DNA of 64,000 nucleotides from Candidatus Levyibacteriota bacterium (GCA_041906785.1 JAYRIM010000021.1:17881-81880); one strand, 5' to 3'. Positions 22,347 through 49,240 are shown, counted from the stretch's first letter. Program-made: numbers and translations. Notes: generated from the sequence alone by a model not told the origin.

Positions 22347-22351
22347 AATGG

Positions 22352-22436
22352 ACTAAAGGAGACAAGAGAGCCAAAGGTTCCAAACGGATAAAGTTACCTT
22401 TGTCTCATCTGGCTCTTCGGTCTCTTATGGAACCTG
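22352..22436. repeat. composite palindromic intergenic repeat, copy 2
   Basis: GGAGACAAGAGAGCCAAAGGTTCC...ACCTTTGTCTCATCTGGCTCTTCGGTCTC between convergent uvrC and SBP genes. Confidence 0.6.
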
Positions 22437-22441
22437 GAAGC

Positions 22442-23803
22442 TTACTTTCGAATCAGTTCATATTCTTGGGGGAAATAGAGAAATGAGGCTGGTGCTTCAT
22501 CAAGGAGATATTTTTGAAAGTCTGTATATATTTTTATTCTTTCCTCATCATCTACTGTTTTTCGGCCATCTTCCAATAGCTTATCTATGCGCAAATTTCG
22601 CAACTTTGTAATATTGTTTGCCTGTGCTGAATGCCATAAAGTATATTGATCTGGATCTTTTGGAACATTAAATTCACCCAAGAATACTTGGAATTGGTCC
22701 GGTATCGTATCTGCGTCATTTATTGTGACTATAAAACCAAGCTTCTCCCATGCTTTCGAAATAGTTTCTGCTGTGGTTTTATATTTTTCTAATGAAGTTA
22801 TAGTAATTTTTGGTTTAGCACTGGCACTAGCTTGTTCCAGAGCAGAAGAAACCAGGAGACTTGCATGGTTAAGATCTTGTCGTCTCGCTGCTGTATCTGG
22901 GTTACTGTATTTAGATTTTGGTGGGTAAGGATTGTATGTACGAATTCCTTCTCCAAACGTATCAGGTAGTGCATAGGTAAGACCATTACGAATTTTTTTA
23001 TCAGAAAGCAAAGGATCTTGAGTATTATAAAAAAGTGTAACTAATGTACCGTAGTTTACCTGTTTTTTTATAGAAATATTTTGAAATTTGCTAAAATCTA
23101 CTGTTTGTAATGTAACTGTGTTCACGCGTGCAATTTTAGTAATTTCCCCAAGTGCCATAGCAGTTTTTAATGCATCTATAGTCGGATAAAAGATATATGT
23201 TTCATTCTGTAAGGAATCTTTTCGTGAAACTAATTGAATAGTCTTTAGGAATTCTCCGTTCAGCTCAAGTTTATGTATTTTATAGTCCCCAACACCTATA
23301 AGATTTTTATAAAAAATAGGCCGTGAAACAGTTACAAGGAAGGGCGCATACGGTTCTTTTAAGTTAAATTCGATAGTATAGGGGCTCGGTTTCTTAATAG
23401 TAACTTTTGAGAAAGAATAGCTCACTTTATCTGAAGTAAATGGTTCACCGTCAGAAAACGTTATGTCTTTTTTTAAATAGAAAGTATATCTTTTACCTTT
23501 ATTTGAAATTTTCCAAGAAGATGCTAAATCTGGTGAAATAGTGCCACCCTGTGAGACTTTTGTTAAACCTTTTGCGATTTTATTCACTATGAATGAAGGC
23601 ATGTTTTCCGTTCGGTAAGCACCTGAAATGCCTATAATCGTCTTTCTGTGAGTTGGAATAAGTTGAAGAAGAAGTGGATAAAAATTAACTAATAAAAGAA
23701 AAATTCCTAACCCTATTAAGAAAAAAAGGAAAAATTGCTTTCCCCAGCGTTTAATATATGCCTTAATCAACCAAAACAAGTATCGTCGTCGGATTACAGC
23801 CAT
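22442..23803 (-). CDS. extracellular solute-binding protein family 5 (OppA/DppA-like), membrane-anchored
   Basis: N-terminal TM then SBP_bac_5-like core (ISPDLASSWKISNKGKRYTFYLKKDITFSDGEPFTSDKV). Confidence 0.5.
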   Translation of the reverse strand: MAVIRRRYLFWLIKAYIKRWGKQFFLFFLIGLGIFLLLVNFYPLLLQLIPTHRKTIIGISGAYRTENMPSFIVNKIAKGLTKVSQGGTISPDLASSWKISNKGKRYTFYLKKDITFSDGEPFTSDKVSYSFSKVTIKKPSPYTIEFNLKEPYAPFLVTVSRPIFYKNLIGVGDYKIHKLELNGEFLKTIQLVSRKDSLQNETYIFYPTIDALKTAMALGEITKIARVNTVTLQTVDFSKFQNISIKKQVNYGTLVTLFYNTQDPLLSDKKIRNGLTYALPDTFGEGIRTYNPYPPKSKYSNPDTAARRQDLNHASLLVSSALEQASASAKPKITITSLEKYKTTAETISKAWEKLGFIVTINDADTIPDQFQVFLGEFNVPKDPDQYTLWHSAQANNITKLRNLRIDKLLEDGRKTVDDEERIKIYTDFQKYLLDEAPASFLYFPQEYELIRK

Positions 23804-23814
23804 AATTAAAAATC

Positions 23815-23880
23815 GTATAACGTGTAACTTGTAACGTATTGCAAAAGATTGTACGTTACACGTTATGCGTTACACGCTCC
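23815..23880. repeat. ACGT-rich inverted repeat CGTATAACGTGTAAC...GTTACACGTTATGCG
   Basis: Arms reverse-complementary; between secG stop and SBP gene start. Confidence 0.5.
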
Positions 23881-23887
23881 ATGGGAA

Positions 23888-24100
23888 TCATTGGGGTATT
23901 ATTAGTAGCGCAATTGAAAACACAGCCAGAAGAGCAGCAGAAAGAACAGTGAGGTAAATGAGAAGCTTTTCAATATTTCTTTTACTGCGGTACATTTCTC
24001 CCCCTCCACCGAAGACTGGAGATAATCCTCCGCCCTGTGATTGGAGTAATACACAGACTATTAAAAGTATGGAAACGAGTATTTGAGCAATATATAACAT
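23888..24100 (-). CDS. secG: preprotein translocase subunit SecG
   Basis: 70 aa, two TM, LLQSQGGGLSPVFGGGGEMY glycine-rich SecG signature. Confidence 0.6.
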   Translation of the reverse strand: MLYIAQILVSILLIVCVLLQSQGGGLSPVFGGGGEMYRSKRNIEKLLIYLTVLSAALLAVFSIALLIIPQ

Positions 24101-24104
24101 GATA

Positions 24105-24140
24105 GTTATGAGTTGTCAGTTGTCAGTTGTCTGTCAGTCA
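24105..24140. repeat. heptamer repeat array GTTATGA-GTTGTCA-GTTGTCA-GTTGTCT-GTCAGTCA directly upstream of secG start
   Basis: Read directly; same word family as 14297 and 25877. Confidence 0.8.
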
Positions 24141-24192
24141 TGCGCAAAGGATAAAAAATATTTACTGATCACTAAATACTGAAAGCTGAGTG

Positions 24193-25173
24193 CTATTTAT
24201 TATAGAGATTCATGATTGCAGATGCAAGTTTATTTGACTCATGATAAATCGGAAAGTTTTCATCTACAAGATCTGAAAAAACGAGATGGTATTCCTGCAG
24301 CATGTCTTTATTTTTTATGTGTTCGACATATGTATATGATGTATGCTCATCCTTTAATGGTATTGACTTATTTCCATTAACGAGAACATCATCAAATGGA
24401 AATATGCCAATGTGTTTTTTAATGGCTTCAATAAAATCATATACTGTGTATCCTTCAGTTTCTTGGGGTTTGTTCGCGACGTTTACTATATATGTCTTTC
24501 TGGCTTTTGACTTTAAAAATGCTTCTTTGATCAATGGTACGATCAATACAGGAAGTGTTGTAGTATATAAATCTCCCGGACCTACAATAATGATATCTGC
24601 TGTATGAATCGATTCAATCGCTTTTTGTGATACTGAGGGATTTTCTGGAGTAATAAAGATTTTATCTATTTGTGGTTTACCTTCGTATTTTCCTAAATCT
24701 ATATTCTCTTCACTGTGAACTGTCACACCGTCTTTCGTGACTGCTGAAAGTGTGACAACTTCATTCGTGGCTGGATAAATTTTCCCGCTAGCATGAACTA
24801 AGCGTTGGATAAGTTCTACTGCATCATCGTAATCACCAGTAATCTCTTTTGCTGCAATAAGCATCAAGTTTCCTAATTTCTGTCCGCCAATTTCACTATC
24901 TGCACCATATCTATCTCCTGGAAAGCGGTACGTGAGAAGTTGCGCGATATTAGGATGGTCATCTCCACTTAAAGCTGCAATGCACGAAACCAAATCGCCA
25001 GGAGGTAGTGTATTAAATAATCTCCGTAAGCGTCCACCTGATCCGCCATCATCTGTAGTGGTCGCTACAACTGTAATATTATCAGCGATTTGTCGCAGTC
25101 CACGGATAAGTGTGACAGTTCCAAGCCCTGATCCAAGGCAAACAATACGCTTATTTTTCAAATCCTTTTCCAT
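24193..25173 (-). CDS. YvcK/CofD-family (UPF0052, gluconeogenesis-factor-like) protein
   Basis: RIVCLGSGLGTVTLIRGLRQ N-terminal glycine loop and ATTTDDGGSGGRLRR motif typical of the YvcK/CofD family. Confidence 0.6.
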   Translation of the reverse strand: MEKDLKNKRIVCLGSGLGTVTLIRGLRQIADNITVVATTTDDGGSGGRLRRLFNTLPPGDLVSCIAALSGDDHPNIAQLLTYRFPGDRYGADSEIGGQKLGNLMLIAAKEITGDYDDAVELIQRLVHASGKIYPATNEVVTLSAVTKDGVTVHSEENIDLGKYEGKPQIDKIFITPENPSVSQKAIESIHTADIIIVGPGDLYTTTLPVLIVPLIKEAFLKSKARKTYIVNVANKPQETEGYTVYDFIEAIKKHIGIFPFDDVLVNGNKSIPLKDEHTSYTYVEHIKNKDMLQEYHLVFSDLVDENFPIYHESNKLASAIMNLYNK

Positions 25174-25297
25174 AGATTCTATTTGTTGACTTTAGTTCCT
25201 GTATTTTACTTTAAAGTATCGAAAGTATCAGATTATTACTAATTAGAAAATCCAAAGCCTTCGATACCTTTGGTACTTTTCATACTTTTGATACCTC

Positions 25298-25702
25298 TTA
25301 TTTTATGAGCCAGCGTATTGTACCTGAAATCAGAGATAAAGCAAGAGCAGCGAGAATAAATGCAAATAGTGTATTAACCTTAATCGGATCAATAGAAAAC
25401 CCTGCCAATGACGCTCCAGGAAATTTATACTCCATTATGCTTACATTCGGTACGAAAACTGTTAGAAGATAGAGAATTAAAGCGTTCGTTATGACTGAAA
25501 ATAGCCCCATCGTAATGACATTAAATGGAAAGGTCAGTACTGAAAAAATAGGTTTCACAAAAACAAAAAGTAAAGAAAGTGCTACTCCACCAAGAATAAG
25601 CGTAAATGCTCCTCCGACGATTTTTACACCGCCTACAAAATGAGGTAAAAGAAAAAGGGATAAAGCATAGATAGCTGTATTCCTGAGCAGTGGTTTAAGC
25701 AT
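25298..25702 (-). CDS. DUF360/holin-like 4-TM membrane protein
   Basis: 134 aa, four TM helices, pattern typical of YvlD/phage-holin-4_2 family. Confidence 0.45.
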   Translation of the reverse strand: MLKPLLRNTAIYALSLFLLPHFVGGVKIVGGAFTLILGGVALSLLFVFVKPIFSVLTFPFNVITMGLFSVITNALILYLLTVFVPNVSIMEYKFPGASLAGFSIDPIKVNTLFAFILAALALSLISGTIRWLIK

Positions 25703-25876
25703 GAGCGTTTTACCATTATACTGCAGAGAAATAGAAGAAACAATCTTTTGAGTTTCAAAGAGTCAAGGTTGCAAAGTTACTTGAAAAAATAAAACAGCTC
25801 ATCTATAATATAGGCCTATAGTCGATTTTCGGCTATTTTTATTTGCACATTGAAACAGTGACGGAATCGGGAATAT

Positions 25877-25961
25877 GGTTATCAGTTATGAGTGGTCAGT
25901 TGTCAGTTTTTGAATAAATTATATCTCACAACCCATAACTCATAACTGACAATTGATAACC
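25877..25961. repeat. 85-bp inverted repeat built from heptamer words (GGTTATCAGTTATGAGTGGTCAGTTGTCAG ... CATAACTCATAACTGACAATTGATAACC)
   Basis: Arms reverse-complementary with few mismatches; sits immediately 5' of the second GC-rich islet. Confidence 0.8.
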
Positions 25962-26109
25962 ATTTTTCCGGTTTCGTCCGAAGGAAAGCCTCAGAAAGGA
26001 GGGAAAGGCTTCAGGGACATGGTGGCGCAGCCACCCCGGACATACTCGCTTTTATAGGAGTATGCCTCAAATTCAGTAGACCGCCAGGAAGCGGTCTGGG
26101 AGGGGAAAG

Positions 26110-26532
26110 ATGTCTCGCTTGCGTCTTGAATTCGTTGGTATTCTCGCGGTGCTGCTTGCATTCGCAGCAGGTTCCGCATATGCCAGCGACTCGACAACAG
26201 AATCGGCGACTACGAAAGTCGCCAACCAGTACAGCGTAGATTGTACTGCGTACCCTGTACCGGGATCGAATCCGCCGCAGCACAGTCGGACGCCGAATGG
26301 GCAGACGGGTGTGACTATCCGAGACACAGGTACAATCAATGACCCCAACGGGGTCGTGTACCAGTGTTGGTCAGGAAATTGGAACCCAGTCACCCGGTGG
26401 AAGCAGCCCGAGGTGCAACCACAGCCACAACCCGCTCCGGGCGATCGTTGGTGGTGGACGCCATGCACGCGCTGCCAATGGGTAGCTGCGCCTACGCAGA
26501 AGGCTACCCGGACCACATACCGTCGGCGCTAA
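26110..26532 (+). CDS. GC-rich small secreted Cys/Trp-rich protein (140 aa), hypothetical; could alternatively be non-coding structured RNA
   Basis: GGAGGGG SD before ATG; signal peptide MSRLRLEFVGILAVLLAFAAGSAYA; 6 Cys, W-rich; GC3 bias only moderate and a 147-aa ORF exists on the opposite strand, so coding status uncertain. Confidence 0.35.
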   Translation: MSRLRLEFVGILAVLLAFAAGSAYASDSTTESATTKVANQYSVDCTAYPVPGSNPPQHSRTPNGQTGVTIRDTGTINDPNGVVYQCWSGNWNPVTRWKQPEVQPQPQPAPGDRWWWTPCTRCQWVAAPTQKATRTTYRRR

Positions 26533-26555
26533 CTTCAGGCTTGTTCTGTCAGCGG

Positions 26556-26580
26556 CTTCATGGGGTCGGGCGATCGGCTC
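26556..26580 (+). terminator. hairpin GGGGTCGggcgatcggctCGACCCC followed by TCATGATTTCT
   Basis: 7-bp GC stem with T-rich tail 24 nt after stop of 26110..26532. Confidence 0.4.
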
Positions 26581-26649
26581 GACCCCTCATGATTTCTCGC
26601 TTTCCTCCAAAAACTTGCATTATTTTCTTAATTGGATTTTTCCGATTTT

Positions 26650-26712
26650 TGACGATTTGTAGGTTTCCCTTCCGGCGCAATATAGTATAAGAACAAAAAG
26701 ATTTTATGCTCT
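26650..26712. other. 63-nt near-perfect hairpin CCTTCCGGCGCaatatagtataagaac...ctcttatactaGCGCCGGAAGG
   Basis: 11-bp outer stem plus 11-bp inner stem read directly. Confidence 0.6.
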
Positions 26713-26770
26713 TATACTAGCGCCGGAAGGCATGTGCATAACCAAGTACCGAATAGTACTTGGTAAAGAG

Positions 26771-26812
26771 AAACCCACCTATGAGTATACTCAAACGGTG
26801 GGTTTTTTATGG
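26771..26812 (+). terminator. rho-independent-type terminator AAACCCACC...GGTGGGTTTTTTAT (possibly bidirectional, abuts stop of minus-strand 26807 gene)
   Basis: 9-bp stem followed by T6. Confidence 0.5.
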
Positions 26813-27430
26813 TTTTCTAATATAAGGGTTTGACCCTTTTTGCATGATACTTGGAAAAGAGGATTTAGTCTGTTGTTTATTTTGCTGGTTTTGATTTGTA
26901 TTAGATTTCTGAATTTGACCAGTAGTATTTTTTAAAGGGGATTTATTTTTATTTGATTCATAAAGCTGAAAATAGTCTGGATTCTCTGTAGGACTATATT
27001 GGCGGGCTTCATCAATATCATGGGATCCTGTGTACTTACTAATAATCCATTTTAATGGAATTGAAAATACTATTCCAATAATAACTGCAGCAGTCATCAA
27101 TAATATATTAAAAAATATCACATAACCGATTGTTAGGGTTAGTGTCGGTGTTTGGAATGATATACTTTCTGCAGTCAGACAGGCAGCTTGTAAACCATTT
27201 AAAGAACAATGAAAATCGATTAATGGGTAAAGAGCGGTGAACAGAACCCCAATAGAAAAGATTGGAATAAAAACGATAGAAAGAATAAAAATGGTTTTTT
27301 TGCTTAATTTCAAAGGAAGAATTAAACCAACGACTAATCCGCTCACAATAAGTAACATTGCAGGGTTAGCAAGTAATCGGATATATTCTACAAAAAAATT
27401 GTTCAGGTTCATAGTTGTATGATACAACAA
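26807..27430 (-). CDS. membrane protein with Q/N/K-rich C-terminal tail, hypothetical
   Basis: 4 TM segments then low-complexity QKSNTNQNQQNKQQTK. Confidence 0.35.
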   Translation of the reverse strand: MLYHTTMNLNNFFVEYIRLLANPAMLLIVSGLVVGLILPLKLSKKTIFILSIVFIPIFSIGVLFTALYPLIDFHCSLNGLQAACLTAESISFQTPTLTLTIGYVIFFNILLMTAAVIIGIVFSIPLKWIISKYTGSHDIDEARQYSPTENPDYFQLYESNKNKSPLKNTTGQIQKSNTNQNQQNKQQTKSSFPSIMQKGSNPYIRKP

Positions 27431-27501
27431 TTTAGCAATTTAACAATACAACAATCTAATTTACTCTCTTGCATATTTCATATGATGTTGTATAGTGGTT
27501 A

Positions 27502-28755
27502 ATGCTATCTTCAACCACTATGAATACAATTCTTTGTCCTCATTGTAAAAAAGCTGTAGAAATCTCAGAAGCATTATCCCATCAATTGAAAGATGAGATA
27601 TTAAAGGAAGTAGATGGGAAACATAAAGAAGAACTAGAAAAAATCCGTATTGAAGCAGAAGCAAGAGCAGCAAAACGTGCCGAAGAAGCATTAGCGCTTC
27701 GTTTAAAAACGTCTCAAGAAGAAGTAGAAGAAACGAAGAAACGGAATAACCAACTCCAAGAACAACTATCAGAACTATTAAAAAAACTTCGTGATATGGA
27801 ACAAAAAGACAGCGAACGAGAATTAGAAATGCAAAAACAATTATTAAAAGAACGAGAAATGATGGAAATGGAGATAGCCAAATCCGAGCAAGAAAAAGCA
27901 CGATTAGATAAAATGGAATTACAAAAACAGCTTGATGATACGAAAAAAGCGCTCGAAGACGCTCAGCGAAAAGCGCAACAATCCTCCCAGCAACTTCAAG
28001 GAGAAGTTCTCGAGTTAGATCTTGAGCAACAACTACGAACAGAATTTTTAACCGATGAAATAACACCTGTTCCGAAAGGAGTAGATGGAGCAGACATCAT
28101 TCAGAAAGTGAGAAATAAATTTGGGCAAATCGCCGGATCAATTCTTTGGGAAACAAAAAGAACGAAAGCATGGAGTAACACATGGTCAGCGAAACTTCGC
28201 GAAGATGTTCGAACAATGGGTGCTGAAACTGCTGTATTAGTGAGCGATGTTCTTCCAGCAGGGATAGAAACATTTGGTTTTTATGAGAATATATGGGTTT
28301 CATCTTATCGCTATGCGTTACCGCTTGCTTCAGCATTGCGTATAGGTCTCCTCCAAGTAGCCAGAGCTAAATCTGCTTCAGCGAATAAAGATGAGAAACT
28401 AGAAATGCTTTATCAGTATCTTACAAACACAAGCTTTAAGCACCGATTCGAAGCGCAAGTAGAAGCTATAATAGAATTACGACAGGATTTTGAAGCAGAA
28501 CAGAGAACGATGACAAGATTATGGAAAAAGAAAGAAATGCAATTGCAACGAATGACGAAAAATGTTGCAAGCCTATATGGTGAATTACAAGGTATACTGG
28601 GCTCAGCACTTCCAGCTATTCAAGGATTAGAAGTAGATCATATGCTAGATTCTGGAACTTCTACATTGGATTCAGTAAACGGAAATATAAAAAACGGAGA
28701 CTTATTTAGTGACGGAAAAGAAACGTATGAAAAAGCAGATTCCACCCTCCTTTAA
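27502..28755 (+). CDS. DUF2130-like protein: N-terminal CxxC zinc ribbon, long coiled coil, conserved C-terminal domain
   Basis: CPHCKK motif, about 150-aa E/K/Q-rich coiled coil, C-terminal globular region. Confidence 0.45.
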   Translation: MLSSTTMNTILCPHCKKAVEISEALSHQLKDEILKEVDGKHKEELEKIRIEAEARAAKRAEEALALRLKTSQEEVEETKKRNNQLQEQLSELLKKLRDMEQKDSERELEMQKQLLKEREMMEMEIAKSEQEKARLDKMELQKQLDDTKKALEDAQRKAQQSSQQLQGEVLELDLEQQLRTEFLTDEITPVPKGVDGADIIQKVRNKFGQIAGSILWETKRTKAWSNTWSAKLREDVRTMGAETAVLVSDVLPAGIETFGFYENIWVSSYRYALPLASALRIGLLQVARAKSASANKDEKLEMLYQYLTNTSFKHRFEAQVEAIIELRQDFEAEQRTMTRLWKKKEMQLQRMTKNVASLYGELQGILGSALPAIQGLEVDHMLDSGTSTLDSVNGNIKNGDLFSDGKETYEKADSTLL

Positions 28756-29440: not shown

Positions 29441-29529
29441 CGCTTCGTAAAATAAGAGAATTAAAAAAGAAAGTAATACTGATCTATTGACAGACTACAT
29501 AAACTGAGAGCATAGTGTATTTAAAGAGG

Positions 29530-29547
29530 TATGTGATCTAGATCACA
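29530..29547. promoter_or_regulatory. perfect 18-bp palindrome ATGTGATCTAGATCACAT, candidate operator about 30 nt upstream of 29579 start
   Basis: Self-complementary sequence read directly. Confidence 0.3.
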
Positions 29548-29578
29548 TGATATTTCCTCTGAAAGGGGGTGATAGTAC

Positions 29579-29974: not shown

Positions 29975-29993
29975 TTACATATTGTATTTATCA

Positions 29994-30027
29994 GAACCGC
30001 ATAGATATCTATGCGGTTCTTTTTTTG
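29994..30027 (+). terminator. rho-independent terminator GAACCGCATAGATATCTATGCGGTTC + T7
   Basis: Perfect 11-bp stem and U-tract. Confidence 0.8.
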
Positions 30028-30141
30028 TTTTAATCCACTTCTTTCCGTGCTCACAAATAAAGAGATTGAAAGGTTTTTGTAACATTTATATCAAGTTTGA
30101 TGAATCATAGATGTTTATAGTATAGCCATAAGGAGGAACCT

Positions 30142-31497: not shown

Positions 31498-31498
31498 T

Positions 31499-33160
31499 TT
31501 AAGAAGCCTGTTTCTGATGAGGATTTTCTTCTATCAAATATTGTGCGGCATATGCTTCAGTTACATCGATTTTCTTATGGGGATTAAAAATAGAATCTGG
31601 GTCGAAGATTTCCTTTATTCTTTTAAATATACCATACATTTCTTTTCCAAACATTTTTTCTAAATAAGGGCTTCGTATTAAGCCATCATTATGTTCACCG
31701 GTGAGTGACCCACCGAATTTTAAAGTCAAATCAAAAACTTTTTTTCCCACAGAATATATCTTCGCTCGTTCCTTCGGATCTGATAAATCCATAAGCGGGA
31801 TAATATGGAAATTGCCATTTCCTATGTGTCCTGCAATTGTTGCTTGGATATGAGATTCATCAATTATTTTATATAACTCAGGGAGAAATTCCGGATAGAC
31901 TTCAGGTTTTACACATGTATCATCGATAAACGGCGCAGCGTATTTATTTTTTACGTGATGTCGTAATAAATTAAAACTTTCTCTGCGGATAGCCCAGTAT
32001 TTTTTTCGCTCTGATTCATTATGTGTGATTTTTAATTGTAGATTATCAAATTGAATCAGTTCATCAGATAAGGATTTAAGCTTCTGATGTATAGTATGAA
32101 TACTATCATCTTCAAATTCTACGAGTAGAACTAGTTTAGGCATACCTTTGGCGAGCACATATGCGTATTCAGGTAAAAATTGCTTAATTGTCTGAAAAGG
32201 AGAAGATTTTAAAATGGGTGAAAAGCCGGTAACATATCGAAGTGCTAATCGGAGTGTATAATGGTCAAATGTCTCAAAACTATCAGGATTATAGGAAAGA
32301 ACTTTTTTAACAATTTCAGGAAGATTATCTAAATTATCTAAATATGCGACAAGTAGACCGTGATGCTTCTTTTTCTGTACTACTTTCAATGTTGCTTCTG
32401 TAATCAACCCTAGTGTTCCTTGCGAACCAACAAACAATTTAGTCATATCAAAATGTTCTTTATCCCAAACTCGCCAGATTGTATATCCGGCAGAATTTTT
32501 TGAAACATCAGGTTTATATTTCTGAATCTTTTCATAATTCGATTCAACTAACTTAAATACCTCCCGATATACTTGTCCCTCAAAGGTTTTTAAATCCATT
32601 TTCTTTTCTAGTTCGCTTTTCGTAATTTTAGTGAAAGTATACACATTCCCATCTCTTAAGATAACTTTTAAAGAAGTCACGAAATCTTCAGCCTTACCAA
32701 ACTGTAACGATTTTTCGCCTCCTGCATTATTCGCCACTATTCCACCTACAGCACATAAACGTTTAGAGGACGGATAGGGGGGATATATAAGATCATGTTT
32801 TAGTAATTCATGCTCAAGATCTCTAAAATAAACTCCTGGTTCTACCACGGCTTCGTTGTGAGAAATCTTATGGATTTTATTAAACTTTTCAAATGCGATA
32901 AGAATAGACTCAGTAAGCGAACCCCCACTCATACAAGTACCTGCAGCACGGGCTGCTACTGATAAATGGGGATGTATGTGTTTATGTTCGTTTAAAAAAT
33001 GTATAATTTTTTGCAGATCTGCTACAGATTCCGGAAAAACAACTGCAAGCGGCTTCATTTGGAAAACACTCGCATCTCGTTTATATTTCTCACGAGTTTC
33101 ATCGTCAAGGAAAACCTTGTTAGGTAGTAATTGTTGGAGTTGGGCCAGAACGTTTATCAT
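31499..33160 (-). CDS. FAD-linked oxidase (GlcD / D-lactate dehydrogenase-like)
   Basis: FAD-binding PCMH motifs GTCMSGGS, VVEPGVYFRDL, CAVGGIVANNAGG; C-terminal FAD-oxidase_C. Start trimmed to Met 33160 because the track start lies inside the palindromic repeat. Confidence 0.65.
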   Translation of the reverse strand: MINVLAQLQQLLPNKVFLDDETREKYKRDASVFQMKPLAVVFPESVADLQKIIHFLNEHKHIHPHLSVAARAAGTCMSGGSLTESILIAFEKFNKIHKISHNEAVVEPGVYFRDLEHELLKHDLIYPPYPSSKRLCAVGGIVANNAGGEKSLQFGKAEDFVTSLKVILRDGNVYTFTKITKSELEKKMDLKTFEGQVYREVFKLVESNYEKIQKYKPDVSKNSAGYTIWRVWDKEHFDMTKLFVGSQGTLGLITEATLKVVQKKKHHGLLVAYLDNLDNLPEIVKKVLSYNPDSFETFDHYTLRLALRYVTGFSPILKSSPFQTIKQFLPEYAYVLAKGMPKLVLLVEFEDDSIHTIHQKLKSLSDELIQFDNLQLKITHNESERKKYWAIRRESFNLLRHHVKNKYAAPFIDDTCVKPEVYPEFLPELYKIIDESHIQATIAGHIGNGNFHIIPLMDLSDPKERAKIYSVGKKVFDLTLKFGGSLTGEHNDGLIRSPYLEKMFGKEMYGIFKRIKEIFDPDSIFNPHKKIDVTEAYAAQYLIEENPHQKQAS

Positions 33161-33248
33161 AAGGGACCTAAGAGCCAGAAGAGCCAGAGGTACCAAAGGC
33201 TTAAACATTTGTCTCCTTTGGCCCCTTTGTCTCTTTTGGAACCTCTAA
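33161..33248. repeat. composite palindromic intergenic repeat, copy 3
   Basis: AGAGCCAGAAGAGCCAGAGGTACCAAAGGC...CATTTGTCTCCTTTGGCCCCTTTGTCTCTTTTGGAACC. Confidence 0.65.
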
Positions 33249-34274
33249 CTATTTTTTCATTACACATTTCACTGCTTCTTTTATCGCAGGAATGTCCATA
33301 TGGTATTTAGCAAGTAATTCTGGTGTTTTACCGGATTCTGCAAATGTGTCTTGCAAACCTATAAATGCCATTTTCGTTGGTCGTTTTTTAGCAAGTATCT
33401 CTGCGATCATGCCACCCAATCCTCCAGTTACTTGGTGATCTTCGACAGTGACAACTGCTCCTGATTTATTCACAGCCTGAATAATCTGATCCTCCTTAAT
33501 AGGTTTGATAGTCGGAACGTTAAACACGTCTACAGAGATATGTTCCCCTTCAAGTTCTCTAGCTGCAAGCAACGCATGATAGGTCATGTAGCCCATCGAA
33601 AAAATAGTTGCAATTGGTGCATCTGATTTCCAAAAATGTTGAATACTTCCAAGATCAAAAGGGGTTTCTTCAGTAGTCATCACAGGAGTTTTATCCCGGG
33701 TAAATCGTATATACACAGGACCGTCGGTTTCAGCGGCTAGAATCGTTACCTTTTTACCCTGTAACGCATCAACAGGGACGAAAATACTCATTCCAGGCCA
33801 GGCACGGGTTGAAGAAATATCTTCAGTTGCTTGATGAGTAGCGCCATCAGGACCGGTCATTATTCCCGCATGATGCCCGGCTATTTTAACATTGGTTCGA
33901 TTATAAACAGCAGTAGTACGTATAGTTTCCCAGTTCTTACCTGGCGAAAAGGTAGCATATGAGGATATAAAAGCTGTTTTTCCAGCTGCAGCGAGTCCAG
34001 CGGCAACTGCTGCCATATTTTGTTCAGCAACACCGCATTCGAAGAATCTATCAGGATATTTTTTTTCAAAACCGTTAGCTTTCGTGGATTCTGAAAGATC
34101 AGCAGTTAACACAACAACATTTTGATTTTTTTCACCGAGAATTTCAAGCCCATCACCATACCCTTCACGAGTCGCCCGCTGCTCAACATCTTTATCGAAT
34201 AATTTCGAATTTAATTTAAGGTCAGGATTTAGCATATTATTTTTTACAACATTTTGTTTTTTCAAAAAAAACAT
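33249..34274 (-). CDS. transketolase, C-terminal (pyrimidine-binding + C-terminal domain) subunit
   Basis: ECGVAEQNMAAVAAGLAAAGKTAF, GPDGATHQATEDI motifs. Confidence 0.8.
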   Translation of the reverse strand: MFFLKKQNVVKNNMLNPDLKLNSKLFDKDVEQRATREGYGDGLEILGEKNQNVVVLTADLSESTKANGFEKKYPDRFFECGVAEQNMAAVAAGLAAAGKTAFISSYATFSPGKNWETIRTTAVYNRTNVKIAGHHAGIMTGPDGATHQATEDISSTRAWPGMSIFVPVDALQGKKVTILAAETDGPVYIRFTRDKTPVMTTEETPFDLGSIQHFWKSDAPIATIFSMGYMTYHALLAARELEGEHISVDVFNVPTIKPIKEDQIIQAVNKSGAVVTVEDHQVTGGLGGMIAEILAKKRPTKMAFIGLQDTFAESGKTPELLAKYHMDIPAIKEAVKCVMKK

Positions 34275-37795: not shown

Positions 37796-37796
37796 G

Positions 37797-37868: not shown

Positions 37869-37986
37869 GTTATAAAAATGAAAATTTAAATCTCAAATAG
37901 CTAAAATACAGTTGTTATTGTAGCAAAAAACATATCCCACCACCACTTCTTAGATAGATCATATAGATTGCAACAATTTATTTAGT

Positions 37987-40021: not shown

Positions 40022-40022
40022 C

Positions 40023-40697
40023 GTGAAACAATCTTCAATAATTACTCTGACTAATATCATAAAAGATTACGTTACTGACACAGTAACTACAAAAGTCCTC
40101 CACGGTATAACAATCGATGTTAAAAATGGAGATTTTATCGCTATTACCGGACCATCAGGATCTGGAAAATCCACACTATTAAATATTATTGGCTTACTTG
40201 ACACTGCAACTTCAGGAACATATGTCTTAAATAATAATGATGTAACACAATTAACTGAAGATGAACAGTCATACGTAAGAAATAGAGAAATCGGTTTCGT
40301 CTTTCAAGCTTTTAATTTACTAAAACGTATCTCAGTATTAGAAAATGTGATACTTCCTTCAATTTACAGCGGAATGAAGAAAAATGAGCGGGAGCAGCGA
40401 GCTGAAGAATTGTTAGAGAAAGTAGGGCTTGGGGAGCATATGTATAAAAAGCCAAACCAGCTTTCAGGAGGCCAACAGCAGCGAGTAGCTATAGCAAGAG
40501 CCTTAATGAATAAACCATCAATTATTTTAGCTGACGAACCTACGGGAAATCTTGATACTCGCTCAGGAGAAGAGATAATGGGAATTCTAAAAGACTTAAA
40601 TAAACAAGGTAACACGATTATTATGATCACTCATGAACGAGATATAGCAGAACAGGCAAAGAAGATAATACAAATAAAAGATGGAAGAGTTTTATAA
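40023..40697 (+). CDS. ABC transporter ATP-binding protein (MacB/LolD type)
   Basis: Walker [10 protein letters not shown], signature [15 protein letters not shown], Walker [12 protein letters not shown]. Confidence 0.9.
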
Positions 40698-40698
40698 A

Positions 40699-40786
40699 GG
40701 TTCCAGAGGAGACCAATGAACCAAAAGAGACAAATGTGTTTTTACATTTGGTACCTTTGTCTCGTCTGGCTCTTCTGTCTCTTTAA
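40699..40786. repeat. composite palindromic intergenic repeat, copy 4, inserted between ABC ATPase and permease genes
   Basis: GGTTCCAGAGGAGACCAATGAACCAAAAGAGACAAATGTG...ACATTTGGTACCTTTGTCTCGTCTGGCTCTTCTGTCTC. Confidence 0.7.
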
Positions 40787-40791
40787 ACATT

Positions 40792-41982: not shown

Positions 41983-42038
41983 AAGAAATTCTAAACTCAA
42001 ATGTCAAAATTACGTATTTTTATTAGTTTCTTAACTTC

Positions 42039-43232: not shown

Positions 43233-43253
43233 TCATTTGCATCAAATCGTGAT

Positions 43254-43931
43254 GTGATATACAATAATTTAAAGACCGAAATGGTCTTTTTTTATCGTAT
43301 GAAAGCAAAAATCCAAAATCTTTTTTCAAAAACGAAAAGTTCTTATAAAACACTTCCTGAGAAGAAACAATATGTTGAATTCTTTACAGCAGTTCTTTCA
43401 GTACCAGTGCTATTAACAGTAATTTTATTAAATATTAATAACCTTCAAGCAGTTAAACGTGTTACATCTGCTGAACAAAAGGCTAACCCTACACCTATTA
43501 AAGAAATTATTTATGTGTCTCCTAATGATTCTAAAAAAATAGTACAAAGCTCAAATACTTCACTCGATGATGCAGACAATACTCAGCCCACTCCAACAAT
43601 AGCAGCGTGTAAAAAAGAAGTGGGTCCTGTATCGATCCAAGCGCCACAGGAAAACGAAAAAATTTCTGAAAATCCTGTAAATTTAATTATTCGCTATGAA
43701 GCAGGTGATTATTGTGCTGTAGTATGGTCATACAGGATTAATAACGGTAAATGGTCTGAATATGATGATAAATCAATAGCATTATATGATCTTCCTGAAG
43801 GCATAATTCATATAGCAGTCAAGGTAAAAAGTATTGTGACAGGCGATGAAAAGCTATTAGAAAGAAATTTTAACTATGCACCGGCAGCAAATGTGAATGA
43901 AGATAAAACCAGCTCGACATCTGCGAGATAA
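43254..43931 (+). CDS. hypothetical secreted/membrane-anchored protein
   Basis: Signal-anchor, no family recognised. Confidence 0.35.
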   Translation: MIYNNLKTEMVFFYRMKAKIQNLFSKTKSSYKTLPEKKQYVEFFTAVLSVPVLLTVILLNINNLQAVKRVTSAEQKANPTPIKEIIYVSPNDSKKIVQSSNTSLDDADNTQPTPTIAACKKEVGPVSIQAPQENEKISENPVNLIIRYEAGDYCAVVWSYRINNGKWSEYDDKSIALYDLPEGIIHIAVKVKSIVTGDEKLLERNFNYAPAANVNEDKTSSTSAR

Positions 43932-43941
43932 ACAAGGTTGA

Positions 43942-46386
43942 TTGTATATTCTTCAGCGAATACAGTACAATACAATTGTGAAATCTAGATTAAAACAGCT
44001 TCTAACATTCTTCATTGGCTGGCCTCTCTCGATTATTGCGCTTTACTTTATCCTGAAAACCTTTTTACCTAAGTACGACCAAATAGAGCATTCATTACAA
44101 AATACAAATTATTTCTTGCTAGGTATAGGTATAGTATGTTTTTTCATGTATTACTTGGTGAGAAGTGTCGTTTGGTTGAGGCTATTAAAAAATATGGGAT
44201 ATGAATTCCCCTACCATAAAATTGTTTTTTTATGGGCTTCTTCCGAATTTAAACGATATATTCCAGGAAATATATGGTCATTCGTAGGTAGAACAGTCTT
44301 ATTTACAGAGAAGGGGATGACGAAAAAAGATATAGGAAAAGCACTTGTTTTCGAACAGGAAATTGTCCTTTTAGGGTGTATCTTCGCTTCAGTGATAAGT
44401 TTTCCTTTTATAATTAACGAGATGTTTCCGTATCTTAAGCAGATTCCTTTTATTAATGTATTACCTTTTCTGATCATCATTTTAGGAGCAGCTGCATATA
44501 TCTATATGCCTTTTTTTACTCAGAATCTTCCGACTAAAATTCAACAGATCATCCATCACATTCTGCCAAAATTTGTTCCCATAGAAACGTTTATCATGTT
44601 ATCTCTCAGCAGTCTTGCTTTCCTCTTTTTTGGCTTAGGATATTACTTTTCGATAACAGCAATTTTTCCATTAAACCCTCAGCTTGTGTTCGTTTTAGCA
44701 GGTTTTTTTATATTTTCTTTACTCGTTGGATTATTATCTTTTTTAACTCCAACAGGTCTTGGTGTTCGAGAAGGAGTAATGACCGTTGGATTATCAAAAG
44801 TTATCCCTATAGCTAAAGCTGGGTTTGCTTCAGTAGCTGGAAGAATTGTTCTCGTTTCTTCTGAAGTTGTTTTTCTCTTATTCAGCTATGCGATTCATAA
44901 AATTCCAGAAAAAACGGCTGTTGTGTATGAACAATTTATAAAACACCATATATATCAAATACTATTAATGATTGGTGTTCTGCTTTTTACGATATATTTC
45001 ACAATTATTAGTTTTCTCCGATACGAAAATTTTAATACTGGACGCTTTGATTTAGGTAATATGGATCAGACTGTTTGGAACACACGTCATGGAAGAATTT
45101 TTCAACTCACAAATCCTGATGGTATTGAGATCGTTTCCCGTTTAGCATTCCATGCGGATTTCATCTTAATTCTTTTCGCTCCTCTGTATTTTATTTGGGA
45201 AGATCCTAGAATACTTCTTTTTTCCCAGGCAATAATAGTCGGTAGTGGTGCAATCTTCGTGTTTCTCTTAGCGAATACTGTTTTAAAAAATAAATTATTG
45301 AGCTTAGTGTTCGCTTTTTCCTACCTGCTCAACCCGAGTGTCCAAAGAACAGTTCTTTACGATTTCCATGCTGTTACACTAGCTACAACATTTCTTTTAG
45401 GCAGTTTTTATTTTTTATATAAGAGACGACTTATTTGGTTTATTATTTTTTCACTTCTTGCTGCTATAACGAAAGAACAAATTTGGATAATAGTCGGTTT
45501 CCTCGGTTTCTATCTTTTTAACATAGAATTTTTAAAACAGAAACCTATTACGAATATGTTAAGAAATAAAAGCGCGTTGCTTGGTTTGTTTGTCGCATTT
45601 CTATCATTTCTCGCGTTTTACATTCTCTTCTGGTATGCGATTCCTGCAGCGTCAAATTCCAAACACTTCGCTTTATCGTATTTTAAAGAAGATAATAACA
45701 ATATGAGTGATTTAGTAGTAAACACTATTCTATCGCCAAATAATTTATTTAAGAAACTTAGTGATCATGATAGGCAAGATTATATTAAACAGCTTCTACT
45801 TCCTGTAGGTTTTCTACCTATTGCAGCGCCTATATATGTATTATTTCCTATCGCCGATTTAATATTAAATGTATTAAGCGATAAACCTGAATTACATCAG
45901 ATTTATTATCAATATACAGCTGCTATTACACCTTTTTTATTTATTTCATCTATATTTGCTATTCATTTCATCAATAAATATGTTTCTAAAATCACTTTAC
46001 GCGTGTTTACTCTTTACGTTGCAATTTTTTCACTCTACGGAGCGTTTCTCTATGGTCCTTTACCAAGCGCGAAATCTCCAAATCTTGCAATGATAACTCA
46101 GCCTTTAGAAGACAGGGAATATATTTCAGAAAATCTATTACAGATTCATCCAGCTTTGAAAGTTGCAGCGACTAATTCATTAGGATCTCACCTCGCACAT
46201 CGCGAACATTTGTATACACTGCCGAAAGGTATTAACGAAGCTGATGTCCTTATTTTTCAGTTAACAGATAATCAAAATCAACCTTCAAAATTATGGCATG
46301 AGGAAAAAGTGCGAGAATTACGAAGTAGCGATGATTATGAGATACTTTTTGAGAAAGATCATATTGTCGCTTTTCAAAGAAAATAA
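43942..46386 (+). CDS. large polytopic membrane protein: N-terminal flippase-like (UPF0104/LPG-synthase TM) region fused to DUF2079-like GT-C-type domain
   Basis: About 20 TM helices; GRFDLGNMDQTVWN motif of DUF2079 family. Confidence 0.45.
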   Translation: MYILQRIQYNTIVKSRLKQLLTFFIGWPLSIIALYFILKTFLPKYDQIEHSLQNTNYFLLGIGIVCFFMYYLVRSVVWLRLLKNMGYEFPYHKIVFLWASSEFKRYIPGNIWSFVGRTVLFTEKGMTKKDIGKALVFEQEIVLLGCIFASVISFPFIINEMFPYLKQIPFINVLPFLIIILGAAAYIYMPFFTQNLPTKIQQIIHHILPKFVPIETFIMLSLSSLAFLFFGLGYYFSITAIFPLNPQLVFVLAGFFIFSLLVGLLSFLTPTGLGVREGVMTVGLSKVIPIAKAGFASVAGRIVLVSSEVVFLLFSYAIHKIPEKTAVVYEQFIKHHIYQILLMIGVLLFTIYFTIISFLRYENFNTGRFDLGNMDQTVWNTRHGRIFQLTNPDGIEIVSRLAFHADFILILFAPLYFIWEDPRILLFSQAIIVGSGAIFVFLLANTVLKNKLLSLVFAFSYLLNPSVQRTVLYDFHAVTLATTFLLGSFYFLYKRRLIWFIIFSLLAAITKEQIWIIVGFLGFYLFNIEFLKQKPITNMLRNKSALLGLFVAFLSFLAFYILFWYAIPAASNSKHFALSYFKEDNNNMSDLVVNTILSPNNLFKKLSDHDRQDYIKQLLLPVGFLPIAAPIYVLFPIADLILNVLSDKPELHQIYYQYTAAITPFLFISSIFAIHFINKYVSKITLRVFTLYVAIFSLYGAFLYGPLPSAKSPNLAMITQPLEDREYISENLLQIHPALKVAATNSLGSHLAHREHLYTLPKGINEADVLIFQLTDNQNQPSKLWHEEKVRELRSSDDYEILFEKDHIVAFQRK

Positions 46387-46407
46387 CTTTTTTGCTATCA
46401 TAATCAT

Positions 46408-47229
46408 ATGATTTCAGTTTTAAAAGCTGTAAACCAAAAAGAACCATATAATGAAGAAAAAATCCGTACCTCACTAAGCCGAGCAGGTGTACCTTCAGAT
46501 CTGCAGTCAGAAGTCGTTTCTCATATTAATAAAAGAGTGTATGAAGATATACCAACGCAACATATTTATAATGAGGTTCGTGACTATTTAGGAAAATCTG
46601 CATATCCTTATACGAAATCACTTTATGGATTAAAACAGGCTATTATGGATTTAGGGCCGACGGGATATCCTTTTGAAGATTTCGTTTCTCAAATTCTTAT
46701 AACACTCGGATATACAACTGAAGTTAGACAGATATTACGTGGAAAATGTATTCAGCATGAAATAGATGTTATTGCGAAAAAAGAAAATGCTGTAGCTATG
46801 ATCGAAGCGAAATTCCATAATGCACTAGGCACAAGGTCCGATGTTCATGTGCCAATGTACACAAAAGCACGCTTTGATGATGTGAAAGAACAATATAGAT
46901 TAACAGAAGCATGGGTCATAACAAATACAAAAACTACTTCAGAAGCAATAGCTTATGCGGAATGTGTAGGGATGAAGATAGTAAGCTGGAGCTATCCTAC
47001 TGGTAAAAGTCTCCGTGAACTTATAGAATCTGCCGGCTTACATCCGATTACACTTCTTACAACATTATCAAATAACGATAAAGTACAATTACTTCAAAAT
47101 CATGTCGTCCGATGTAAAACAATCCATGAAAATCCTGCATTGTTAGATGCACTACCACTTTCTGACGCTCAGAAGTTACAAGTCATGAGCGAGATCGATT
47201 TTGTTTGTAAAGGAGAACACCAAAATTAG
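46408..47229 (+). CDS. ATP-cone domain fused to restriction-endonuclease-like (Mrr-type) domain protein
   Basis: N-terminal ATP-cone-like region (VLKAVNQKEPYNEEKIRTSL...); central HEIDVIAKKENAVAMIEAKFH resembles PD-(D/E)xK Mrr catalytic core. Confidence 0.4.
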   Translation: MISVLKAVNQKEPYNEEKIRTSLSRAGVPSDLQSEVVSHINKRVYEDIPTQHIYNEVRDYLGKSAYPYTKSLYGLKQAIMDLGPTGYPFEDFVSQILITLGYTTEVRQILRGKCIQHEIDVIAKKENAVAMIEAKFHNALGTRSDVHVPMYTKARFDDVKEQYRLTEAWVITNTKTTSEAIAYAECVGMKIVSWSYPTGKSLRELIESAGLHPITLLTTLSNNDKVQLLQNHVVRCKTIHENPALLDALPLSDAQKLQVMSEIDFVCKGEHQN

Positions 47230-47230
47230 A

Positions 47231-47316
47231 AGGGGTTAATGGGACAGAAGAGCCATAGGTACCAAAAAAAAACAACTTTTGTCTCTTCTGGCTCTTTGGT
47301 CCCTTTTGAAACCTTT
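47231..47316. repeat. composite palindromic intergenic repeat, copy 5
   Basis: GGGACAGAAGAGCCATAGGTACCAAAAAAAAACAACTTTTGTCTCTTCTGGCTCTTTGGTCCC. Confidence 0.7.
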
Positions 47317-47320
47317 CAAT

Positions 47321-47776
47321 ATGGAGTTCTGGCAGCAACTTATCATAATCATTTATGGATCATTAGCATTTATAGCTTTTATAACAAGCATATACGCCTG
47401 TGCTTTTAAAAAGAAAGCGTATCAAGATACACCTCTCTGGGGTTTACTTTTTACAGGATTTGTCCAAGCTGATAATGTATATATTGGTTTCTTTTGGGTA
47501 TGTGTTTCGCTCGTAACACTTGTTCTTAATGATTGGCTACTATTCCTGCTTATCCTTTCTTATTTCTGGCTGGTACGCAGTGTAGGGGAGACGTTATATT
47601 GGTTTTTACAGCAATTTCACCCCAGAGGAGGCAATCCTCCGGAAAAATTCTGGATACATAAAGTCGTTAAAAATGATTCTGTGTGGTTTATGAACCAAAT
47701 TTACTGGCAACTCATGACAGTTATTACAATTATTGCTTCTCTATATATTACACATATTTGGTTAAAAACTATTTAA
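47321..47776 (+). CDS. small 4-TM membrane protein, hypothetical (start trimmed out of repeat)
   Basis: Track ORF start 47279 lies inside repeat copy 5; first Met after repeat at 47321 (MEFWQQL...). Confidence 0.35.
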   Translation: MEFWQQLIIIIYGSLAFIAFITSIYACAFKKKAYQDTPLWGLLFTGFVQADNVYIGFFWVCVSLVTLVLNDWLLFLLILSYFWLVRSVGETLYWFLQQFHPRGGNPPEKFWIHKVVKNDSVWFMNQIYWQLMTVITIIASLYITHIWLKTI

Positions 47777-47780
47777 TCTT

Positions 47781-47807
47781 ATGTGTCTAGCTGGTACAAA
47801 CCTGACA
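47781..47807 (+). repeat. REP-like element, truncated copy
   Basis: ATGTGTCTAGCTGGTACAAACCTGACA matches 5' half of 8653 and 18136 elements. Confidence 0.55.
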
Positions 47808-47819
47808 ATTTGAAAACTT

Positions 47820-49148
47820 TTATCCCTCTTGTGCTAGCTTCACTCGTTCGTATCTATCAGCCATAAATCCATTCGGAACAGTTGTTAATTTATCTGCATA
47901 CATTAAAAATCCATTTCGTATCGTATGATCCCCGTATTTTTCATTTAAAACATCTATAACGCGTACGACATTCTCATATTTCATATTGTCGTAAAACATG
48001 TGTTGGCTCGTTTGTTCTTTATTAGCTAGATAGCTCACCCAGACACTAATTTGCCTGACATATCCTAAATCTGAAAAAAAATGTTGCCAAACAAATTCCA
48101 CAGATGCTGTATCTTCCTTTCCATAAGGCCACCCATCTTGATTTGCCATAGTAAGAGAGACATAAGTCGTTTGTTGGACTAAAAACAATAACATAGTAAA
48201 TAAATCTTTTCCGTTATCCATATAATGAGAGAATGTTCGTTGTCTTGCAATACTGTTTCGACCACGAAGTGCGAAGCCTACATGGCGCGCTCGCTTTCCC
48301 AGCCGCCGCAATTTAATTCCGAGTTCTTCACAAAGTTCATAGACGTTTTGTAAAACAATTCGTGAATTATATTCATTTTTTGGTAAACAATAATTTCTAC
48401 TTATAGATTTGGCTTCCTGGGTAATCGTAAAGGAGATAACATCACGCATATCTATCCCTTTTCCTACATGAAAAAGAAATGTTCCTTCTACCTGACCAAA
48501 CTCTGCCAATAATGAAGTAAGTGGTGTTTGAGAAAGCTGCGTCAGTGTATAAATCCCCATTTGGTTAAGGCGCTTTTCTATACGCGGACCGATACCGCAT
48601 ATATCTTGGAGTTTAGCCATACTGTAGATATATGGAACTTGTGAAGGTTTTATAGATACAACACCATCAGGTTTTTTTAAGCCAGAACCAAGTTTAGCTA
48701 ACAATTTATTATAGGAAATACCCACTGAAACAGTAATATGTTCACCAATTTCTTTCCGAATGCGATCTTTTAAATGCTTAACGAGGGGAAAAACACCACC
48801 AAATAAATGAGCAGTCATTGTAACATCAAGAAAAAGTTCATCGATAGAGAATACTTCGATAAAAGGTGAGTAATCTTTACATATTGCTATAAACTTTTTA
48901 CTAATTTCCCAATATTTTGGAAAATCTGCAGAGACGAACTGCATTGTAGGACATAACTTAAGCGCATCGAAGCGGCTCATCCCTCCTGTGACACCCAATT
49001 TCTTCGCCTCTTTTGATGCTGCGATAACCGCATTCCTGCCGTTTTGAGCAGTAACACCAAGAGGTTTACCCTGCATCTCTGGGCGATACTGCTGTTCTAC
49101 GCTCGCAAAAAATGAGTCAAAATCAATATGTAAAATTATCTTATTCAT
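47820..49148 (-). CDS. dinB: Y-family DNA polymerase IV
   Basis: ILHIDFDSFFASVEQ catalytic motif, palm/fingers/little-finger layout, 442 aa. Confidence 0.8.
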   Translation of the reverse strand: MNKIILHIDFDSFFASVEQQYRPEMQGKPLGVTAQNGRNAVIAASKEAKKLGVTGGMSRFDALKLCPTMQFVSADFPKYWEISKKFIAICKDYSPFIEVFSIDELFLDVTMTAHLFGGVFPLVKHLKDRIRKEIGEHITVSVGISYNKLLAKLGSGLKKPDGVVSIKPSQVPYIYSMAKLQDICGIGPRIEKRLNQMGIYTLTQLSQTPLTSLLAEFGQVEGTFLFHVGKGIDMRDVISFTITQEAKSISRNYCLPKNEYNSRIVLQNVYELCEELGIKLRRLGKRARHVGFALRGRNSIARQRTFSHYMDNGKDLFTMLLFLVQQTTYVSLTMANQDGWPYGKEDTASVEFVWQHFFSDLGYVRQISVWVSYLANKEQTSQHMFYDNMKYENVVRVIDVLNEKYGDHTIRNGFLMYADKLTTVPNGFMADRYERVKLAQEG

Positions 49149-49150
49149 GA

Positions 49151-49240
49151 AGGGCCATATGAGACAAATGAGCCATAGGGGACAAATGTATTTTCCTTTG
49201 GTACCTTTGTCTCTTAGGTCTCTTTTGGCTCCTTATGCTA
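49151..49240. repeat. composite palindromic intergenic repeat, copy 6
   Basis: GAGACAAATGAGCCATAGGGGACAAATGTATTTTCCTTTGGTACCTTTGTCTCTTAGGTCTCTTTTGGCTCC; track ORF 49147..49344 is just its translation. Confidence 0.7.

Follow-up and report, generated by a model that had tools for sequence, protein, structure and literature searches.

Short inverted arrays of 9-nt units between genes of a Candidatus Levyibacteriota bacterium: a candidate family of non-autonomous insertion elements

The window analysed here, a whole 64-kb stretch from a Candidatus Levyibacteriota bacterium (GCA_041906785.1 JAYRIM010000021.1:17881-81880), carries a family of short palindromic repeats between its genes. Six related copies (A to F) were read in the window, together with a divergent seventh (Table 1). 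A first-pass annotation made from the sequence had placed six copies of an ~85-nt composite palindromic element at 14884, 22352, 33161, 40699, 47231 and 49151. All six are present, and shuffled sequences gave none, while the range assigned to the family (22352-49240) was too narrow, as the first copy falls outside it. The 9-nt periodicity of the element was not stated in that annotation.

Flanking genes were named with Pfam, and all six copies proved to be intergenic. The range of contexts that had been proposed (convergent genes, tandem genes and the interior of one ABC operon) was borne out by these names: copy B is flanked by convergent genes and copies C to F by tandem genes, with D inside an HlyD-ATPase-permease operon. 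Copies B to E begin 0-6 nt from stop or start codons on both sides, as does F on its dinB side, and for B to E the element plus those few bases is the entire gap between the two genes. Copies C and D are antisense to the genes around them; E and F read in the sense direction. The copies take whatever intergenic space exists, in any gene-orientation context and in both orientations to transcription.

Long open reading frames (ORFs) that run into the copies are artefactual extensions. This had been stated for the starts of three predicted ORFs (31499..33208, 47279..47776 and 49147..49344), and we agree: the genes probably start at 33160 (MINVLAQ), 47321 (MEFWQQ) and 49148 (MNKIIL), and the ORF at 49147-49344 is spurious, being read out of the copy F repeat. 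The neighbouring uvrA, uvrC and dinB genes also brought up the idea of an SOS/LexA box, which was dropped, since the genes beside copies C, D and E have no such connection and relatives lack the sites.

Table 1. Positions of the repeat copies and of other features in the window and in the compared sequences (nt).
Feature	Sequence	Position	Strand	Score	Context or remark
Copy A	Window	14883-14958	+	63 bits, E 7e-16	Region upstream of uvrA, shared with a small unannotated ORF; adjoins heptamer tandem array 14845-14879; degenerate, with 2 good units in left arm and 4 in right arm
Copy B	Window	22350-22435	+	84.7 bits	Between convergent stops of uvrC (22344-22346) and SBP_bac_5 gene (22442-22444)
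Copy C	Window	33161-33244	+	91.1 bits	Fills gap between two minus-strand genes: transketolase C-part stop 33249-33251 (-), likely true FAD-oxidase ATG 33158-33160 (-)
Copy D	Window	40698-40788	-	92.3 bits	Between ATPase stop (40695-40697) and MacB-type permease ATG (40792), inside ABC operon
Copy E	Window	47230-47316	+	93.9 bits	Between Mrr/ATP-cone gene stop (47227-47229) and a 151-aa gene whose probable true ATG is at 47321
Copy F	Window	49150-49233	-	85.3 bits	1 nt upstream of dinB-like (IMS family) start codon 49146-49148 (-)
Divergent seventh copy or sister family	Window	25205-25300		24.3 bits, E 5e-4	Between CofD/YvcK-family and holin-like genes
RAYT-like Y1 transposase gene	Window	7979-8647		Pfam Y1_Tnp, E 2e-9	
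RAYT-flanking repeat	Window	7900-7975, 8646-8704, 18128-18186, 47778-47805			First repeat family of the first-pass annotation
Tandem 7-nt arrays	Window	14281-14343, 14845-14879, 24103-24137, 25860-25978			GTTATGA, CAGTTGT
G+C-rich island	Window	~25990-26560			140-aa ORF at 26110-26532
topA	L131	10562-12682			
topA	L215	6407-8536			
topA	L216	10001-12109			
topA	L217	425-2428			
Different MITE-like family	L141	9068-9212, 9894-10000, 16982-17571			
Inverted arrays	L142	1623-1735, 9560-9700			ATPase-permease gap and dinB upstream region
Palindromes centred on HIP1 octamer	L216	7805-7852, 8626-8667			Patescibacteria-like contig
9-nt arrays	L147	98-125, 14523-14550			Viral contig

Architecture and word order of the copies

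Each copy consists of three to four tandem 9-nt units, a 13-17 nt A-rich loop and three to four inverted units. With both arms laid out in register, the unit consensus is R-G-A-G-M-C-A-R-A. The left arm is purine-rich and uses words such as GAGACA, GAGCCA, GGGACC and GGTACC, with spacers of AAR or similar, and the right arm is pyrimidine-rich and carries the complementary words TTTGTCTC, TCTGGCTC and TTTGGAACC. The period was also returned by a repeat finder as within-copy start-to-start spacings of 9 (families D1, D2 and D4). Elements are 76-91 nt long at 38-46% G+C, and their arms are 71-79% complementary.

When both strands were scanned with a position-weight matrix for three consecutive 9-nt units, only these six loci were returned, with 0 matches in 20 shuffles, and a two-arm IUPAC pattern had 4 matches in the window against 0.00 expected. 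A covariance model recovered the six copies at E values of 3e-25 to 7e-16, scores that are high by construction because the same copies were its training set, and found nothing comparable elsewhere in the window. It gave one further weak match, at 25211-25302, where inspection showed the same 9-nt-unit inverted-array architecture as in copies A to F. The words there are of the GTATC/GGTAC type (AAAGTATCG AAAGTATCA ... CTTCGATAC CTTTGGTAC TTTTCATAC TTTTGATAC), and the locus can be read as a divergent seventh copy or as a sister family. As expected from the first-pass description of long imperfect hairpins, RNA folding of the six copies gave imperfect hairpins of -24.9 to -35.8 kcal/mol (z of -2.4 to -4.7 against dinucleotide shuffles). 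The arms are also poor in stop codons, with 14 of 36 frames open across the six copies versus 6.6 +/- 2.3 in shuffles.

The order of the words within the arms is conserved. GGTACC, the KpnI site, occurs in most copies (4/6), as had been claimed, although not at the centre of symmetry where it had been placed: it is the innermost left-arm word in C and E and the innermost right-arm word in D and F, ~6-15 nt off centre. Four of the five GGTACC sites of the window lie inside elements. Because this word is self-complementary and innermost on opposite arms, D and F align collinearly with the other copies once reverse-complemented, and the loops then align too (GGTACC-AAAnGnnAAAACA-TTTGTC). The conserved order runs R1 TGTCTC, R2 TGGCTC, R3 KGTCTC and R4 GGAACC in the right arm, with GGTACC as L4. 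The element therefore has an orientation, which is plus in A, B, C and E and minus in D and F.

The orientation-corrected alignment was collinear, and 24 of its columns were invariant across the 9 sequences. Right arms had a mean identity of 0.78 in register, compared to 0.59 after a slide of one unit and 0.71 after a slide of two; the corresponding values for the left arm were 0.69, 0.61 and 0.55. In-register identity thus exceeded unit-shifted identity, and the likeness between copies goes beyond the shared composition that the first-pass annotation had named as the outcome that would count against a family. Shared ordered words of this kind imply that the copies descend from a common ancestor.

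Empty sites in relatives and a family member within topA

Syntenic relatives at 74-79% protein identity were compared at the sites of copies D and E; the relatives of the permease include proteins named Patescibacteria group by NCBI. In the window the ATPase-to-permease junction, with copy D, spans 94 nt and the junction between the Mrr gene and the next gene, with copy E, spans 91 nt. The same two junctions measure 19 nt and a 4-nt overlap in relative L140, and 8 nt each in L143; on a contig from ENA the ATPase and permease genes overlap by 4 nt. Neither the unit scan nor the covariance model found the element in the L140, L143 and ENA-contig loci. Site D is empty in all three of these relatives, and site E in L140 and L143.

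Two further relatives hold unrelated palindromic elements in these places. In L141 the D and E junctions and the dinB upstream region are occupied by a different MITE-like family (MITE, miniature inverted-repeat transposable element), with the motif order CGTCATTGCGA ... GAAGCAATC ... GATTGCTTC ... TCGCAATGACG; this motif also flanks Alistipes elements (L070, L088 and L116). The L142 ATPase-permease gap contains an inverted array of TTCCATT-type units (TTCCATT/GCCATTT), and its dinB upstream region an inverted array of GATAAGCGA-type units, which suggests that the tandem-unit palindrome architecture recurs with different words. The simplest reading is that the junctions were ancestrally compact and that different palindromic elements entered a few permissive slots independently in each lineage.

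Members of the family were also sought in public sequences. Genome contigs scanned with the right-arm pattern yielded at least 115 stretches, mostly chance matches or coding 9-nt arrays; among the matches listed only ~8 had both arms, and the organism of the window was not among them. The two-arm pattern returned 23 stretches from metagenome contigs, about half of them genuine and none from the organism of the window. Viral contigs gave 71 single-array matches and no composite element, and a BLAST search of copy C against plasmid and phage collections gave no match. Members with the same vocabulary were found in other sequences of the Candidate Phyla Radiation (CPR), namely a Candidatus Paceibacterota metagenome-assembled genome (MAG; L076), L118 and a 287-kb JGI contig (L131). 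The overlap of the L076 copy with an ORF was set aside as an artefactual start extension. A supposed coding copy in L128/L132 was likewise rejected, since its ORF proves to be rplL extended by 49 residues at the N-terminus; that element more likely sits in the rplJ-rplL spacer.

In L131 a family member lies in frame within topA, in the Toprim region between the AWHxxxL and RITFHEIT motifs, where it reads ...LEEAKGTKEPKGTKVKKTFGSSGSFGTSGSSRFA... The segment between the motifs is 33 residues long in L131 compared to 4-8 in the Streptococcus and E. coli enzymes of solved structure and 8-11 in most close relatives. The insert itself is about 27-30 residues and adds ~25 residues relative to the TopA proteins in the PDB and ~20-22 relative to the closest insert-less relatives. 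Records of this exact protein come from three sources. Two other TopA proteins (P0124 and P0126, from L215 and L216) have a 29-30-residue insert at the identical point, encoded by a different 9-nt-unit palindrome, (A)GTACCACGR ... YCGTGRTAC, and a third (P0125, from L217) has (AAATTCG)x4 there. Because these inserts are in frame, elements with the 9-nt-unit palindrome architecture would be translated as part of an essential enzyme, in a loop that is permissive. More broadly, the AWHxxxL-RITFHEIT loop is hypervariable across Patescibacteria, ranging from 8 to ~37 residues, and its DNA is often palindromic or tandemly repeated. The DprA gene of L131 contains a one-armed array.

Other repeats and similar arrays in other phyla

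The window encodes a RAYT-like Y1 transposase, whose gene is flanked by its own repeat, CTTATGTGTCTA..GTACA.ACCCGATGTGGGTTTTA. This repeat (at 8646, 18128 and 47778, among other places) is unrelated in sequence to the 9-nt element, as the first-pass annotation had maintained, and the nearest 9-nt element lies 6.2 kb from the RAYT gene. In the relative L216 the RAYT gene likewise has hairpins of its own on its flanks. A link between RAYT and the 9-nt element was rejected, as the RAYT genes of both the window and L216 are flanked by other sequences. Palindromes centred on GCGATCGC, the cyanobacterial HIP1 octamer, were also noted in L216.

Tandem arrays of 7-nt units occur in the window as well and are reminiscent of the cyanobacterial STRR repeats. 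At 25860-25978 two inverted 7-nt arrays form a 119-nt palindrome with 49-nt arms that are 73% complementary. Beside it is a visibly G+C-rich island in a window of 36% G+C, in which the ORF has a signal-peptide-like N-terminus and no Pfam match. This island could be foreign DNA or an assembly chimera.

The genome scan also returned the 9-nt inverted-array architecture from Alistipes, Prevotella, Victivallis, a Thermoanaerobaculia MAG and Candidatus Peribacter. The search pattern imposed the similarity of words across phyla; it did not require that a partner array in inverted orientation be present. A Bacteroidales family is abundant (Alistipes MAGs L002, L018, L070, L088, L103 and L116; Prevotella L043) and has purine-rich 9-nt arrays (TAAGGGACN / TAAGAGACA), a conserved ~40-nt core (GAAGTCGCTATCAACAGAAAGGTCCGAGCCATCCC) and then inverted pyrimidine arrays. 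None of the cross-phylum look-alikes, this family included, had an Rfam match. Similar 9-nt arrays were seen at the very ends of viral contigs from IMG/VR, many of them giant-virus MAGs (L147, L145, L152, L164, L186 and L190). One viral contig has the arrays at both ends in inverted orientation, and the viral end arrays may be terminal repeats.

Origin of the copies and relation to known elements

We favour, at a probability of roughly 0.6, the reading that the copies are one family of small non-autonomous selfish insertion elements, MITE-like or foldback-like, that has spread in this Patescibacteria lineage. The copies would have arisen by insertion, either catalysed in trans by some enzyme or through hairpin-dependent copying. 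Their stop-poor arms of 9-nt (three-codon) units would make insertions translatable as hydrophilic loops, and this translatability may allow the element to persist where the genome has hardly any non-coding DNA. The mRNA hairpin (~-25 to -36 kcal/mol) might alter stability or translation, probably as a side effect rather than as the raison d'etre of the element. The first-pass annotation had spoken of a second family of mobile or structured repeats. The mobile alternative is favoured by the empty D and E sites, and the structured one holds only to the extent that every copy can fold, with no covariation and no Rfam match.

Several observations weigh against an insertion element. The flanks of the six copies show no consistent direct repeat, so that no target-site duplication is definable, and the flanking DNA is not alignable base by base because the relatives share only 74-79% protein identity. 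Neither the window nor the fetched loci yielded an autonomous partner whose ends match, single arms being only weakly found, and the sole transposase-like gene of the window, the RAYT-type Y1 gene, has another repeat on its flanks. The copies are only ~65-80% identical and therefore give no sign of recent activity. Lastly, the variable TopA and DprA loops also carry other short tandem or palindromic arrays, which leaves room for an origin by local slippage.

Selection by the host for RNA hairpins (acting in transcripts as stabilisers, sites of processing, attenuators or terminators, a role that has been suggested for some REP sequences) is an unlikely alternative. It would account for the stable folding of all copies, for their intergenic positions, which are probably transcribed in operons or untranslated regions, and for copy B, whose place between convergent genes is one where a bidirectional terminator would be useful. 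The copies do not have a G+C-rich stem with a U tract, however, and none of the six qualified in a terminator test (G+C-rich stem, 3-8 nt loop, T run) that calls canonical terminators elsewhere in the window. RNAalifold gave 16 pairs with a covariation term of about zero, the pairs being mostly invariant. Rfam had no match overlapping the copies at the gathering score or credibly at E<=5, and only tRNAs reached the gathering score in the window. Nor would conserved RNA function be expected to go with both orientations to transcription, with absence of the element from the orthologous junctions of relatives, or with a family member that is predicted to be translated inside topA.

Similarly improbable is an origin in place, by 9-nt slippage and intrastrand template switching between the arms followed by concerted evolution, with no transposition. 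Such growth fits the variation in unit number between copies, the differing arrays in the TopA loops of relatives (GGGACA/GAGCCA in L131, GTACCACGR in L215/L216, (AAATTCG)x4 in L217), the one-armed DprA array of L131 and the 7-nt-unit inverted arrays of the window. It is weakened by the six dispersed loci sharing the ordered words R1 to R4, the inner GGTACC and a similar loop, which independent growth would not yield, and by the members of the same vocabulary in the CPR contigs L076, L131 and L118. Least probable of all is that the 9-bp unit is an iteron bound, as duplex or single strand, by a protein such as a nucleoid component, a regulator or a recombinase belonging to the element, with the hairpin a by-product of symmetry: the best-conserved columns are indeed periodic (G1, C5, A8 and the TTTG spacer) rather than paired, arm-to-arm mismatches are conserved between copies and similar G[AG]G[AC]C 9-nt arrays occur in unrelated phyla, but no candidate protein was found, the genes nearby share no function, relatives lack the sites at these junctions and the cross-phylum likeness of words was imposed by the search pattern. 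A CRISPR array was ruled out, as the copies are 1.9-10.8 kb apart with housekeeping genes between them.

Among known elements, the eukaryotic Foldback transposons (Drosophila FB, FARE) have long inverted arms of short tandem sub-repeats, variable in unit number, around a small loop; they are kilobase-scale and linked to known transposase superfamilies, and the likeness is an analogy of architecture only. REP and REPIN sequences are also dense extragenic palindromes, and the window encodes a RAYT-type Y1 protein; the present element differs in being A+T-rich, ~85 nt, periodic and without a conserved GTAG-type head, compared to the 20-40 nt, G+C-rich REP with its 5' tetranucleotide. Cyanobacterial STRR heptamers and pneumococcal BOX elements are likewise modular intergenic repeats of short tandem units in variable number, but the former are simple 7-nt tandem arrays and the latter are made of 45-nt modules, and neither is a 9-nt inverted array. 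PARCELs share with our family translated DNA of dyad symmetry that is spread among unrelated microbes, yet they are 25-residue (75-nt) coding repeats arrayed in ORFs and not ~85-nt stand-alone intergenic hairpins.

The closest formal category is the MITE; neither a target duplication nor a parent insertion sequence was identified for the present family. Like the bacterial MITEs (Correia/NEMIS, ERIC, RUP and Nezha, among others), the element is short and non-coding, with inverted-repeat ends, long predicted hairpins and dispersed intergenic copies. Filled and empty sites between related genomes are known for bacterial MITEs (PMC3184786), and here we found a small element with terminal inverted repeats, in multiple dispersed copies, whose D and E sites are filled in one genome and empty in others. 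Unlike MITEs, which have inverted ends around a unique core, the whole element is approximately two arms of tandem sub-repeats. In-frame insertions have been documented for both MITEs and Rickettsia palindromic elements (RPE; PMC10969869, PMC3184786). RPE copies lie between genes and also in frame in conserved protein genes, where they are translated as an extra surface peptide (PMC10969869), and RPE are the closest functional analogue. Both are palindromic repeats at the ~100-bp scale in a small gene-dense genome, with intergenic and in-frame copies and no known transposase. RPEs come from a different phylum, so that on taxonomy the window's element would not be expected to belong to an RPE sequence family, and they are not built from tandem 9-nt units; all window copies are intergenic, the coding insertion being found only in a relative (the TopA of L131). 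Literature searches on CPR/Patescibacteria repeat elements, MITEs with sub-repeats and prokaryotic foldback elements found nothing relevant, and reviews of prokaryotic small repeats contained nothing like arms of tandem sub-repeats.

A broader proposal, which we put forward tentatively and regard as well short of an even chance, is that this family belongs to a widespread class, as yet unnamed, of "triplet-periodic foldback elements". These would be inverted 9-nt (three-codon) arrays around a small core, present in Patescibacteria, Bacteroidales (Alistipes/Prevotella), Lentisphaerota (Victivallis) and Acidobacteriota, whose codon-phased, stop-poor design would open tiny spacers and permissive protein loops to them and which would be moved by an undescribed enzyme or by hairpin-copying.

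In compact, gene-dense genomes the only room for a spreading family is in gaps a few bases wide or inside proteins, and this family appears to use both. It turns junctions of 8-19 nt, or overlapping ones, into spacers of ~90 nt, even inside an operon, and its member in L131 seems to lengthen the essential TopA by about 27-30 residues without breaking the enzyme. In automated annotation the copies give rise to spurious ORFs and to spurious N-terminal extensions. They are also likely break points of assembly in metagenomes and could be used to mark lineages. Should the 9-nt-unit architecture turn out to define a general class that is mobilised by a mechanism of its own, it would be a new kind of prokaryotic non-autonomous element.

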